A DNA stretch of 64,000 bases from Pseudogymnoascus verrucosus. Its lineage: Eukaryota. The translations under genes and the position numbers were made by a program. The notes under the pieces were generated by a model. The model had not been told where the DNA came from and ran no database searches. It saw only the letters and a program-made list of their open reading frames with translations. Within the stretch, counting starts at the first letter, position 1, and the number at the start of each line of letters is the position of its first letter. The DNA lies in NCBI GenBank assembly GCA_001662655.1, contig KV460223.1, one strand, 5' to 3'. Positions 30,886 to 48,357 of this stretch are shown one piece after another.

Positions 30886-30976
30886 TGCCCACATACAGAG
30901 TTGAACTGCAGACCTCGGCATATGATAGATCAGTGATGATACTAGTGCCGCGCTCTACCAACTGAGCTATGGGGGC
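30886..30976 (-). tRNA. tRNA-Thr(AGT) with 18-nt intron
   Basis: Cloverleaf: acceptor GCCCCCA/TGTGGGC, D-arm GCTC/GAGC, anticodon stem CGGCA/TGCCG with CT-AGT-A, intron after position 37, T-arm TGCAG-TTCAACT-CTGTA. Followed by an oligo-T Pol III terminator. Confidence 0.92.
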
Positions 30977-37763: not shown

Positions 37764-38681
37764 ATGGGTATGTTACCAATCTTCGCCTTCGTATGCAAGT
37801 GGGGATCATGAAGTTGTTCAGCGAAAGCTTTCCAGTTCGCCGCAAGGTGTTAATTGGGGATGCGACGCTCGACGACCTGATCTTTGCGAAGTACTTTTCC
37901 GCAGTCGAAAGACCGGATCTTACAAAGAGCATATTGAACATAGGCTGATGGGTGGTTTTTTCTAATAGGTATCGATCTCGACGCACACCATGTCCGCAGC
38001 ACGCACCGCAAGGCGCCCAAGTCTGACAACGTCTACTTGAAGCTGCTCGTCAAGCTGTACCGCTTCTTGGCCCGTAAGTTCACCCCTCACATTCATGCGC
38101 CATCTCCCAGAAGAAAAGGGAAAAAAACAGCCAGCTAACGCCACCAACCCCCCAGGCCGCACCGAGTCCTCCTTCAACAAGGTCGTCCTCCGCCGCCTCT
38201 TCATGTCGCGCATCAACCGCCCCCCCGTCTCCCTCTCCAGGATCGTCGCCAACGTCTCCGAGAAGTCCAACAACAAGACCGTCGTCATCATCGGCACCGT
38301 CACCGACGACAACCGTCTCCTGACCGTCCCCAAGCTCAGCGTTGCGGCCCTCCGCTTCACCGCCACTGCCCGCGCCCGCATCCTGGCCGCTGGTGGTGAG
38401 ATCCTCACCCTGGATCAGCTTGCTCTCCGTGCTCCTACCGGAAGCAACACCCTCCTCCTCCGTGGACCCAAGAACGCCCGTGAGGCTGTTAAGCACTTCG
38501 GCATGGGTCCTCACAAGCACAAGGTATGTTTTTTTCTCCGTTTTCTACACCTCTATTATCAGAGGGCGGTGGAATTGAAATATTCACTAACGCACCCCCG
38601 CAGAAACCCAAGGTCGAGTCCAAGGGCCGCAAGTTCGAGAAGGCTCGTGGACGTCGTGCGTCGAGAGGTTTCAAGGTCTAA
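37764..38681 (+). CDS. RPL18: 60S ribosomal protein eL18, 4 exons
   Basis: [36 protein letters not shown]...[20 protein letters not shown]. Introns 37768-37968, 38074-38155 and 38524-38603; strong C-ending codon bias. Confidence 0.97.
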
Positions 38682-39202
38682 GCGCATCGTCTTTTCTGAT
38701 GGTGACGTTTATCTTGAGTCTGGTGGAGGTGGTGGGATTACGGGCTGGGATTGGCGTGGGGGATTGCACTCTGGCGTCAATAGTTTGTGTCCGAGGGGGG
38801 TAGGAATAACAACCCTTCTTGCTTTTTGCTTGATGGGGCGAGTAGAAATGAAAATGAAAACTACAAGCTTACCTTCATCTATTCACCTTGCAATTCTGAT
38901 TTGTGATCTGTGAGCTGCTGTATCTGTAATCTAATCGTTCAAATCCACAAAACCTTACACCGCAAAAATGGTACGTTGAAAACCTTATATATAAGGCATC
39001 CATACATATCGATACCCATCTCCATCATCCATCTACCCAAATTTATATAACCCAGCATACATACATACATACACGCGCCTCACCACCACATCTCTCCGCG
39101 CGCATAAACCCCCACGAGCACTCACGACACCCTAAACTCACGGGATCAACGAAACCTCACATTACACCTCACCACCACACCACACACACAAAAACCGCCA
39201 AA

Positions 39203-45363: not shown

Positions 45364-48357
45364 ATGGGAACCTTCGTTTTCAAGTGGTAAGCTCGTCCCT
45401 ATCTTCCCGCTGCTCCCCCCGCCGAGGGTCGCGAACAGCTTCAGTTTTTTCGCTCCCAAATTCGCCACCCGCAGAAAGAAAGGAAATTCCGCAGTTTCCC
45501 CAGCTGCAATTAGCTCTGGAAGTCAACTTCTAACTCGATTTCTTCGCATAGGGAGCACCCGGCCTCCGAGGTTATCGTCACAGGCACATTCGACAACTGG
45601 GCGCAGACCGAGAAGCTACACAAGAAGGGCGACATCTTCGAGAAGGAGGTTACGCTGCCCAGCGCGGCAGAGAAGATATACTACAAGGTGAGAACAGCGC
45701 AATTCCAGCTCTTTGCGACACATCAGGCGCAAAAACAACAAGACAAGAGATCGCGCCTCTGCTTCAGGTAGTTTTTGAAAGCTACGGAATCGCAAAAAGC
45801 CACAGTCTACTATACTACTACGGTCCGGCCGGCAAAGCTGGCACAAGCTTACCAACCGGGAACCGCGCAAGTAACTGTACTGTACGTATGCAATTGTACA
45901 TACATACAGCCTTTCTTCGCGGAATTACGGTGGCTAAGAAGTATTTGCGCACACGCATGCCTGCCGGCCGCCTTGGTACGCTGAACAAGGGCCTTTTTGT
46001 CTCGGCGTTTTGGCGCAAAACTACATACTCTAGTGTGTATGTATGACGTATTCCGCCCCCAATGCGCGCGCATTCTGCAATGCCCAGAATTGACCCGCGA
46101 TAACAAGCCAGCGGGGTCGCGGTCCAAAGAAAAGACAGCTTCTGGGGAAATTCCGTCCTGCCAAATCCGATGATCGCGATCGCATTTGGCTACCGCCGTA
46201 CTGGTGGGGTTCCCAGTCCAGTCCATGTCCGGTCAGCTGGCTGGGTGGGCGATGCGCCGTCCCTGGTGAGGGGTGCAACCGAAGCCAACCAAGGCGTCAT
46301 GCCAATGCAGGCCTTCCTCCATGGATCGCCTAATGCTCCCTTAGCTCCCATTGACCGCCTCGACCCCTCATTCTTACTGTACCCTTATCCTCCTCGCCCC
46401 AGCCACCATTGTTTCTCACCAAAAGCACCTCATTGACTCACTCATTGCTTTGCTCGAGAATCATAAATACTGATATTTCTACCTTCTACAGTTCTTAGTC
46501 GACGGCAACTGGGTGACCGACCACACAGCGCCGCAAGAGAAAGATAACCTGGGCAACCTCAACAACTACCTCACCACCGACCGCATCAAGACACACACCC
46601 ACACTCCCGCCGCAGCCGCACTCATGTCCGGCGTCACCCCCAACTCCACCACCGCCGCCCTGGCGAAGGACGTGCCAAAAGAGAACGGCAGCTCCAGCGC
46701 CCTCCCCGGCGCTTTCCCCGAAACCCCCGCCACAGAACCAGAGAGCTTCTCCGTGAACCCCATCCCCGCCTCCGCCGGCAACGGCAACCCCATCACACTC
46801 GCGCCCGGCCAGGCTGTCCCCCACCCGAGCACCATCAACGGCAACACCATCGCCTCGGGTGTCCACGACGACGAGGAGCTCAAGGCAGCCGACCTGGCCA
46901 AGGGGCCAACTTACAGCGTGAACCCCATCCCCGCCACCGCCGGCGGCGGTAACCCCATCACCCTCGCCCCCGGCGAGCCCGTCCCCAACCCAAGCACGAT
47001 CACTGGCAACACCATCGCCTCAACCGTCAGGACAGACAAGGAGTCCTACGAGAACAGCGGCGGTCTCGGAACCGCGCCGTTCCTGCCCCCAGTCGTCACT
47101 CCCGAGGCTGAGCGCAACGCAAAGGGAACTGGTGTCCTCGACCTCCCCTCCGTATCCAAGGGCGGTCTCATCCCCGAGTCCAGCCTCGCAATGGGCGAGG
47201 GCGGCGCAGGAAATTACGACGCTAGCCCGATCATCCAATCTGTCGGCCCTGGCGCAACCACTGCTGCCTTAGCCGGCGCCGTGCCCCTCGAGAAAGACAT
47301 CAAGGGTAAAGAAGCCGCGACCATCCAATCCGTCGGCCCCGGCGCCACCACCGCCGCGCTAGCCGGCGCCGTCCCCCTCGAGAAGACAGGAAGCAGCGTC
47401 CCCGACCTCGTCAAGGAGAGCCAGGAAGCCGCACACTTCCCCCCCGAGGCTAGCGCCGTCCCCGAAGAAGTCGAGGAAAAGAAGGAGGTCGAGCGCGAAC
47501 TTCTCTCCGGCGTCCCGCTCGCCCCCGTCACCTCCGACGGCACGACCAAGGAGTCCCACGACGCCGCCAAGTTCGGCGCTGGCGCCGCGGCGGCTGTGGC
47601 TGTTGGTGGTGCTGCGTTCGCGGTGGGGGCCGCGGCGAAGGGGAAGGTCTCGGAGGCTGTGGCGAATGCGCCGAATCCGAGCGAGGTGTCGAAATCGATC
47701 CCGATCCCTGATTCGATTCGTGAGTCCATCTCGAATATCAATGAGACTGCTAAGCGTCAGTCTGTAGCTGGCATCCCGGCTGAGTCGGATGTGGTGCCGG
47801 AGACGGTGCGTCAGTCGATTAGTGCTGCCCATGAGAGCCCCGAGGCGGCGGCGTATCAGGTTCCGGTTATGGAGAAGAAGGAGGTTGAGAGCGAGTTGCT
47901 GAGGGAGGTGCCGACGGATGTTTCGAAGGGGGAGAGTGCGCCTTCGTCTGCTGCGGGCGGGGCTGTCGCTACTGCTGCGCCGGTCCTCGCGTCCCCTGCT
48001 GTGGTGGCTGCGGTGACGGAGGAGGAGGTGGGCAGGCAGGCGGAGCTACCAAAGGAGTCGGTGGTGAGCGATTTGAGTGATGTTTCGCCTGGCACGAGTG
48101 AGCCGGTTGAGAAGCAGACGAGCCCCGTTGTTACTACTGGTGTAGCGAGCGGTGTTGTGCCCGCGACGTCGGTTGGTGCTGCGGCTGTGGCGCCGCCGAC
48201 CCCGGCGAAGGATTCTACGGCTGGGGTGGCGGCGACGAAGGCGGCTGCTGCTGGGAGCTCGAGTGGGAGCCCGGCTGCGGCGCTGGCGAAGGAGCAGCAG
48301 CAGAAGAAGAGGAGGAGCTTTTTTGGGAAGTTGAAGGATAAGTTGAAGGATTTGTAG
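45364..48357 (+). CDS. CRP1/MDG1-like protein: N-terminal AMPK-beta-type carbohydrate-binding module plus low-complexity repeats, 3 exons
   Basis: Spliced N-terminus MGTFVFKWEHPASEVIVTGTFDNWAQTEKL..KIYYKFLVDGNWVTDHTAPQEKDNLGNLNNYL. Introns 45387-45551 and 45688-46491. Paired internal repeats (SVNPIPA.AG.GNPITLAPG x2; IQSVGPGATTAALAGAVPLEK x2); basic amphipathic tail KKRRSFFGKLKDKL. Confidence 0.88.

Follow-up and report, generated by a model that had tools for sequence, protein, structure and literature searches.

In circuits of the RPL30 type, a ribosomal protein inhibits the splicing of its own pre-mRNA by acting on a structure within that RNA; RPL30 itself uses a kink-turn that overlaps the 5′ splice site. 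Few eukaryotic feedback circuits of ribosomal proteins are understood at the RNA level. Splicing autoregulation has been described in budding yeast for RPL30, RPS14B, RPL22B and RPS9 (PMC4937481, PMC13232506, PMC8216456; here and below, identifiers of this kind refer to the parts of each paper available to us). For eL18, the RPL18 product, the record is a single 2026 yeast reporter study in which the recognition element was left undefined. In that study, induction of Rpl18 in S. cerevisiae represses a green fluorescent protein reporter carrying the RPL18B intron about 3-fold, RPL18A responds weakly, and the Rpl18-dependent repression is abolished by deletion (Granas et al. 2026, PMC13232506) of the structure that Hooks et al. 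had predicted; conserved structures of this kind were predicted in the RPL18A and RPL18B introns of Saccharomycetaceae and Candida only (Hooks et al. 2016, PMC4937481). Here we describe an RNA element in intron 1 of the RPL18 gene of Pseudogymnoascus verrucosus, in a 64,000-nt stretch of contig KV460223.1 (the window) that encodes eL18 on the plus strand at about 37.7–38.7 kb. For this element we computed the conservation, the covariation, the specificity of the core to RPL18 introns, and the likeness to a junction of 25S rRNA and to the yeast RPL18B element. That the element is real and conserved we regard as very likely. Judged from sequence comparison, its probable role is that of a feedback sensor for eL18, mimicking the rRNA junction and influencing how the branch site is used. 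Relative to yeast, the protein and the core were already known; new are the intron, the lineage and a richer architecture, with a three-way junction, GNRA arms and pairing across the branch site.

Relatives were collected by scanning metagenome contigs with the exon-3 protein, and the best 80 of the 129 stretches encoding a relative were used (loci L001 onwards). Of the 80 loci, 75 contain the exon-2 peptide, and in 65 it is present from its first residue. Among these 65, a complete intron at ATGG|GT (64–435 nt) is present in 46, no intron in 3 (at the ATGG position it is absent from L044, L045 and L055, where ATGGG(T/C) directly precedes the Ile codon), and 16 were left unparsed, the contig being truncated or the exon structure different. 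The complete element occurs in the window and in 23 of the 46 loci with a complete intron 1; two more (L003, L005) hold the 5′ part only and 21 have none. L028, whose intron 1 is truncated at the 5′ end, also carries the element. Blocks common to the window and many loci are CCUUCGURUGC-RA-GUGG near the 5′ end, YUGC-G in the middle, GUC-GNRA-GAC, and …GA-GCAURY followed some 10 nt later by GGCUGAC.

In a quick exon-3 protein tree of 73 rows, from which L015, L029 and five other loci were dropped for an incomplete exon 3, one group of 30 rows (Shimodaira–Hasegawa-like approximate likelihood ratio support 92) holds 22 of the 23 positive rows and both partial ones. The other six rows of this group comprise five without intron 1 on the contig and one true loss of the element (L006); the positive row outside the group, L042, sits on a long branch. 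In L006 (2277–2340), the intron is reduced to 64 nt: the interior between the P1 strands is gone while the flanks are kept, so that …UAUGC is joined to UUGAUCAUAGGCUGA. L003 (2214–2335) and L005 (363–519) retain the 5′ half and lack the GAGCAU strand. Intron 1 (297–298 nt) contains two tandem copies of the whole module in L012 (2038–2335), L013 (989–1286) and L029 (2045–2341), where the 3′ strand of P1 in the first copy overlaps the 5′ strand of P1 in the second; AUGG or AUGA has replaced GUGG in the degenerating first copy.

From 5′ to 3′, the general plan of the element consists of helix P1 (GURUGC/GCAURY), the junction purines J12 (RA), helix P2 (GUGG…YUGC, with tandem U·G/G·U pairs), J23 with an opening G, helix P3, and J31 ending in GA. 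In the close group, P3 begins with G(C/U)A/U(G/A)C, followed by a helix of 3–4 bp, a bulge and the hairpin GUC-GNRA-GAC. P1, P2 and P3 were recovered independently in single-sequence minimum-energy folds of divergent members, and the intron of L039 folds with a z of −3.9 that none of 200 shuffles equals. Helix counts come from an anchored alignment. In P1, 40 of 42 cells are standard pairs (7 distinct variants among 24 sequences), with compensatory changes at 2 of 6 positions. In the first eight pairs of P2, standard pairs fill 130 of 160 cells, against fractions of 0.33–0.59 when slid, and compensatory changes occur at 5 of 8 positions; positions 1–4 were used in choosing the anchor, and positions 5–8 alone are paired in 52 of 80 cells. 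All 9 cells of P3 are standard, with a compensatory change from C-G to U-A, and the same count and change hold for P3a. For the 12 close relatives, the comparative model pairs 87.0% of 230 cells (28–42.5% when slid), and not one of 500 shuffles reaches the observed pairing or covariation score. Applied to the unprocessed MAFFT alignment, RNAalifold predicted another long-range pairing of low stability (−5.8 kcal/mol), in place of which the anchor-based pairing was used.

The P3 arm is also the minimum-energy fold of its own sub-segment in 12 of 13 close relatives. Its terminal hairpin P3b, GUC-GNRA-GAC, is present in 11 of the 13 with GAAA or GCAA as the loop; L009 has AAGA and L010 GCAAA. The tip of P2 is a GNRA loop in the window, L001, L004, L015, L011/L019, L005, the first module of L012/L013 and the second module of L029, and a different loop in L002, L010, L018 and the second module of L012. 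In introns of the close group (for example L001:226–464 and L011:301–483), one and the same hairpin, GUC-GNRA-GAC, is often found both at the tip of P2 and in the P3 arm, which suggests either an internal duplication or two equivalent contact points.

A first-pass annotation of the window had described a 201-nt intron directly following the ATG-G exon, which is borne out (GT..AG, 37768–37968), and had drawn in it a multibranch structure with three GNRA tetraloops. The stretches it listed (AGC-GAAA-GCT at 37820–29, CCAGTT-CGCC-GCAA-GGTG-TT-AATTGG at 37832–57 and GTC-GAAA-GAC at 37904–13) and its helix strands (TGCG/CGCA at 37885–88/37900–03, GATC at 37879–82/37916–19, GCTC/GAGC at 37867–70/37927–30 and TGTTC/GAACA at 37815–19/37936–40) all lie where it put them. 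It was also right that the GNRA stems exceed chance: the intron has four such loops closed by at least 3 pairs, a number of at least four arises in 4 of 2000 dinucleotide shuffles and of at least three in 24 of 2000, and across the whole window such loops occur at 0.35 per 201 nt. The fold drawn from them is not conserved. Its 33 pairs form in 58.0% of 255 cells in the 12 close relatives, against 32–43% when slid, and on this alignment TGTTC/GAACA is paired in 50%, AGC-GAAA-GCT and GCTC/GAGC in 53% each and GATC/GATC in 32%, leaving GUC/GAC (86%) as the only helix clearly kept; the variable middle hairpin, present in most relatives with different stems and mostly GNRA loops, is scored too low on the MAFFT alignment. 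In the minimum-energy fold of intron 1, AGC-GAAA-GCT is not formed. Two of the three proposed GNRA hairpins are conserved and the third is not, the closing helix differs from the proposed one, and the compensatory changes sought across relatives do exist, in a fold other than the one first drawn.

To define how specific the core is, we searched both strands of the window and the 80 loci (683,862 bases in total) with a strict descriptor, NN-UGC-RA-GUR…(25–460 nt)…GA-GCA-N′N′, in which NN pairs with N′N′. It matched 28 times, and 27 of the matches lie in RPL18 introns: intron 1 of the window, of 23 loci and of L028, and the yeast-like RPL18 introns of L065 and L076. The remaining match is on the minus strand of L064.

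The protein eL18 binds domain II of 25S rRNA (yeast nt 652–1455) on the solvent side, with its globular domain beside those of uL4 and eL32 (PMC4671574, PMC3909792, PMC12825303). Large-subunit (LSU) rDNA was obtained from a scan of genome contigs with the LR3 primer, which gave at least 51 loci (L082–L132); in viral contigs, the primer picked out an unrelated contig that carries a tmRNA. Many assemblies labelled as bacteria or as metagenome-assembled genomes hold short eukaryotic LSU rDNA contigs, and most of these LR3 loci are of that kind. When Rfam RF02543 was aligned to L115, the segment just 3′ of the LR3 site was found to comprise a 13-bp helix (…CUAUGC/GCAUAG…), GA, a hairpin GUG…CGC, G-UA, three further hairpins, AAGA and the return strand. 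It occupies model positions of about 675–812 of 3401, which is consistent with the 5′ end of domain II, the numbering not being exactly converted. We take this junction to be that of helices H27 and H28–H31.

The core of the intron element resembles this junction closely. The rRNA reads (C)UAUGC-GA-GUG…CGC-G…AAGA-GCAUA(G), the window intron GUAUGC-AA-GUGG…UUGC-G…AAGA-GCAUAU, and the introns of more distant relatives GUGUGC-GA-GUGG…CUGC-G…UGA-GCAUAC; in the rRNA and the intron element alike, the first hairpin opens with G-C and U·G and is followed by tetraloop-capped arms. In contrast, the rRNA has five helices and a continuous 13-bp closing helix, whereas the intron has three arms of unrelated sequence. 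Among the loci listed, the strict descriptor matches the rRNA junction in seven fungal-like LSU fragments (L083, L086, L088, L105, L109, L115 and L117), with one further match, in L114, elsewhere than the junction. Position weight matrices trained on the introns alone place their best sense-strand site on the 5′ strand of the junction in 10 of 16 LSU fragments and on the 3′ strand in 10 of 16, again among the loci listed. On the L105 type of rRNA, both scores exceed those of every one of about 662,000 control positions; a matrix match at window position 45370 is coding exon (MGTFVFKW) and was set aside as noise. The comparison with 25S rRNA that the first-pass annotation had recommended gives a mixed outcome: the junction core matches, and the covariance model of the whole subdomain and the hidden Markov models, which are taken up below, do not.

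The source organism has rRNA of the L088 type: contigs of run X1, aligned with L105, read GGAGTCTAACATC before the shared core, whereas runs X2 and X5 gave no coverage and X3 yielded just pieces of low depth. A longer match between the intron's CUUCGUAUGCAAGUG and L105 (15 of 16) was discarded, since the organism's own rRNA is of the L088 type and the match is therefore not to it. The outer closing helix of L105 (928–1058) is a variant, GUCUUCGUAUGC / GCAUACGGGGCC, which fits the intron's GCCUUCGUAUGC far better than the organism's own rRNA does; this resemblance could be fortuitous, or it could be left over from the kind of rRNA in which the element originated.

The yeast RPL18B element and the window element are both structures in introns of the eL18 gene, and they share a core helix strand ending in UGC, a hairpin opening with GU(A/G) and a later …GA-GCA, with junction purines GA in yeast and AA in the window. 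The deleted yeast stretch opens with AUUCUGC-GA-GUAC-UAAAGGAA-GUAC…, and the part of the supplement available to us ends with …CU-GA-GCA (PMC13232506 supplement). The yeast form is a simple hairpin within a helix and has neither the P3 arm nor the outer helices of the Pezizomycotina element. Two of our loci, L065 and L076, are budding-yeast-like: the protein starts with MGRDHT…, and the gene has one long intron, located after …FLA(R), with UACUAAC as its branch site. Towards the 3′ end of this intron, L065 has UUCUGC-GA-GUGC…GUGC-GAUCCUU-GA-GCAGAG and folds exactly so; L076 has UUCUGC-GA-GUGCAA…UUGUGC-GUCUUCA-GA-GCAGAA and a different minimum-energy fold. In both, the motif lies 10–11 nt before UACUAAC. 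The same core thus appears, as far as sequences can tell, in three settings: the Rpl18-responsive yeast element, intron 1 of one Pezizomycotina clade, and one junction of 25S rRNA. Common descent of the yeast and Pezizomycotina elements is a candidate explanation only. The earlier proposal of a structured, eL18-responsive rRNA mimic in intron 1 erred in its particular fold; its central idea holds and gains indirect support from the conservation with compensatory changes, from the match of the junction core to one 25S junction and from the match to the opening of the yeast RPL18B structure.

These data suggest how the element might operate. The sequence just 3′ of the 5′ splice site can pair with both sides of the branch motif (UCGCCU with AGGC-U-GA, and CCCAUC with GAUGGG). 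In the predicted outer-helix pairing, the branch-point A lies inside a duplex, and the same layout is predicted in most relatives. The branch motif GCTGAT of intron 1 had been called weak by the first-pass annotation; in fact it fits CTRAY, and relatives show GGCTGAC. Between the end of P1 and the branch motif lie 10–14 nt in 23 of 24 Pezizomycotina sequences and 3 nt in L010. The outer helices are structurally the weakest part, as their mean z is only −1.2 (window −1.9, L018 −4.0). In the reading we favour, the intron core (…UGC-RA-GUG…YGC-G…GA-GCA…) would copy the domain II junction of 25S rRNA, so that surplus eL18 would bind it and stabilize the fold. The stabilized fold would then bury or sterically block the branch site some 10 nt downstream and inhibit splicing of intron 1, and the intron-retaining transcript, which would meet a stop after 15 codons, would yield no eL18. 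Compared with circuits of the RPL30 type, different proteins and RNA motifs would be involved, and the intron 1 element is located just upstream of the branch site and predicted to pair across it.

A purely cis-acting splicing structure, which would join the 5′ splice site and the branch site or set the basal rate of splicing without any protein feedback, could account for how P0, P0.5 and P1 frame the two ends of the intron together with its branch site, and deletion of the yeast RPL18B structure also cuts basal expression by about a third (PMC13232506). It is difficult to reconcile with the 64-nt intron of L006 and the 21 of 46 loci without an element: since these manage without it, the element is not needed to splice a short fungal intron. 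Furthermore, the most conserved letters are unpaired junction purines and fixed helix sequence, and the core is specific to RPL18 introns. We therefore consider such a structure an unlikely explanation.

The element could instead serve as a site for another factor, such as uL4, eL32, an assembly factor or an RNase III like Rnt1p, or form part of a separate, stable non-coding RNA derived from the intron. The placement of eL18 is documented at the level of the domain, and uL4, eL18 and eL32 bind the same sub-region (PMC4671574). The yeast RPL18A intron contains a site for the RNase III Rnt1p (PMC4937481, PMC13232506), described as an additional, RPL18A-specific element (PMC13232506); like the element studied here, it is a hairpin in an RPL18 intron, and it lowers expression. 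In contrast to the AGNN loops of Rnt1p substrates, the conserved loops of intron 1 are GNRA (GAAA, GCAA, GGAA and GUGA), in agreement with the first-pass expectation of an element different from the yeast Rnt1p type. As for a non-coding RNA of the small nucleolar class (C/D or H/ACA), neither the boxes nor a matching Rfam family was found: inspection by eye of the aligned introns of relatives revealed no conserved ACA, C or D boxes, and the Rfam search suggested by the earlier annotation matched no family in intron 1, even at E values up to 10. The element is confined to the eL18 gene among the bases scanned, and the inducing protein in yeast was Rpl18 (PMC13232506). Another binding partner, or a separate RNA, seems to us quite unlikely.

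Several observations weigh against the feedback sensor as we propose it. The fold of the window's own intron 1 is modest, with a z of only −2.0 (−60.9 kcal/mol, z −2.04, with 9 of 200 shuffles equally good; inner 136 nt, z −1.68). J12 is AA rather than GA in the window and the close group, and on the rRNA type of the source organism, the common Pezizomycotina type represented by L088, the 5′ block scores merely 6.9 bits (p 2.0e-4 per position), the 3′ block reaching 12.9 bits (p 1.7e-5). The analytic expectation for the strict descriptor, about 3.7e-6 per base or some 0.01–0.02 chance matches per 5.5-kb rRNA operon, is optimistic because the descriptor was trimmed after the rRNA had been seen; a looser junction descriptor, with 168 control matches (0.25 per kb), is common by chance and was rejected as uninformative. 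A covariance model built from 20 rRNA segments and the Rfam structure found no intron above noise: a default-filter search of 341,931 bases gave a single match within E 10, at E 8.1, which is not an intron, and with filters off on 38,640 bases, its intron matches (L025:243–294 and L032:103–229) lie within noise. With nhmmer, neither the intron profile searched against LSU fragments nor the rRNA profile searched against introns and loci gave a match, and Rfam detects neither an rRNA nor any other family in intron 1. Because these whole-domain profile tests are negative, the likeness is limited to about 20 core nucleotides, a short core rather than a copy of the subdomain. The literature we found places eL18 at the level of domain II and contains no statement assigning it to this junction or to particular helices. 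The yeast element, compared here over part of its sequence, sits after codon 37, which is the position of intron 2 of this gene, whereas the intron considered here follows ATGG, and Granas et al. state that indirect mechanisms are not excluded (PMC13232506). Finally, L006, L003 and L005 have lost the element or retain it in degenerate form, and other Pezizomycotina-like clades do not have it.

The negative rRNA profile tests, the modest z and the repeated losses would all be expected of a chance resemblance or of a neutral relic, for instance an old insertion conserved through the closeness of the relatives. Against such an origin, members whose highly conserved protein is only 79–84% identical retain the core, and their arms differ with compensatory changes, and 27 of the 28 descriptor matches fall in RPL18 introns. 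We rate this possibility as very improbable.

Returning to the eL18 sensor, a broader scheme may tentatively be drawn, which we hold to be plausible rather than probable. In this scheme, eL18 would read a compact RNA code, consisting of a helix ending in UGC, tandem purines, a hairpin opening with G-C and U·G, and a GA-GCA return, that stems from one junction in domain II of 25S rRNA. On at least two occasions, fungi would have placed this code in an intron of the eL18 gene, a different one each time: budding yeasts in the codon-37 intron, and one large Pezizomycotina clade in intron 1. The two placements could go back to a very ancient common element that moved from one intron to another, or the mimicry could have arisen convergently. 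In the Pezizomycotina version, the sensor would be coupled directly to the branch site by helices enclosing the branch-point A.

In the titles and abstracts we found on RPL18 intron structure or autoregulation, the element in filamentous fungi and the likeness to rRNA are undescribed. Two published screens for structured RNAs in fungi contain no RPL18 or L18 in the main text available to us (PMC5640933, PMC8216456), and the words 'mimic' and '25S' are both absent from the main text of the yeast paper, as available (PMC13232506). Our analysis adds natural variants, namely 24 complete copies, one 5′-truncated copy, tandem duplications, partial deletions and one clean loss, as well as a candidate rRNA counterpart. 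Together, the variants and the counterpart name the nucleotides to mutate, and whether eL18 reads the same motif in rRNA and in its own pre-mRNA becomes directly testable.

Table 1. Features of RPL18 and of the intron 1 element, in window coordinates.
Feature	Position	Strand	Remarks
RPL18 (eL18) exon 1, ATGG	37764–37767	+	Joined to exon 2 reads MGIDL...; same ATGG|GT intron position in 46 loci
Intron 1, 201 nt	37768–37968	+	5′ splice site GTATGT, branch motif GCTGAT at 37944–49 (A = 37948), 3′ TAG
Outer helices, 5′ strands	37775–37788	+	P0 37775–81, P0.5 37783–88 (UCGCCU); paired with 37942–56 by duplexfold
P1, 5′ strand GUAUGC	37791–37796	+	Pairs with 37929–34; 96% paired in close group
J12, AA	37797–37798	+	GA in more distant relatives, yeast-like introns and 25S rRNA
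P2 base, 5′ strand GUGGGGAUCA	37799–37808	+	Perfect 10-bp helix with 37878–87, also in minimum-energy fold; GUGG/YUGC conserved
P2 extension	37809–37877	+	Irregular hairpin with GCAA cap 37842–45, from minimum-energy fold; contains first two GNRA motifs of first-pass annotation
P2 base, 3′ strand UGAUCUUUGC	37878–37887	+	
J23, GAA	37888–37890	+	G conserved
P3 arm	37891–37923	+	GUA/UAC 37891–93/37921–23; UCCG/CGGA 37898–901/37914–17; bulge CA; GUC-GAAA-GAC 37904–13
J31, AAAGA	37924–37928	+	AAGA in same place in 25S rRNA
P1, 3′ strand GCAUAU	37929–37934	+	
P0.5 and P0, 3′ strands	37942–37956	+	Run across branch motif; A37948 predicted to pair with U37783
Exon 2	37969–38073	+	Opens GT ATC GAT CTC
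Intron 2	38074–38155	+	
Exon 3	38156–38523	+	Pfam Ribosomal_L18 (PF17135), E 2.4e-62
Intron 3	38524–38603	+	
Last RPL18 exon	from 38604	+	

Some loci depart from the exon structure listed in Table 1. L004 (intron 1 at 31–208), L032, L042, L028 and L033 keep intron 1 and have no introns 2 and 3; both are present (61 and 96 nt) in L015, which is closely related to L004 and lies on a contig of 99.7 kb. Contigs of the L004 type are either derived from RNA with selective retention of intron 1 or belong to lineages that lost the other introns; L004 shows an apparent further gene downstream.

Elsewhere in the window, a match to snoZ223 at 38840–38884, 3′ of the RPL18 stop, scored 19.1 bits against a cut-off of 45 (E 2.4) and was taken as chance. 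The only accepted match of the whole-window Rfam search is a tRNA gene of 91 nt on the minus strand at 30886–30976 (RF00005, 49.9 bits), which probably holds an intron because its length exceeds the 71 positions of the model.

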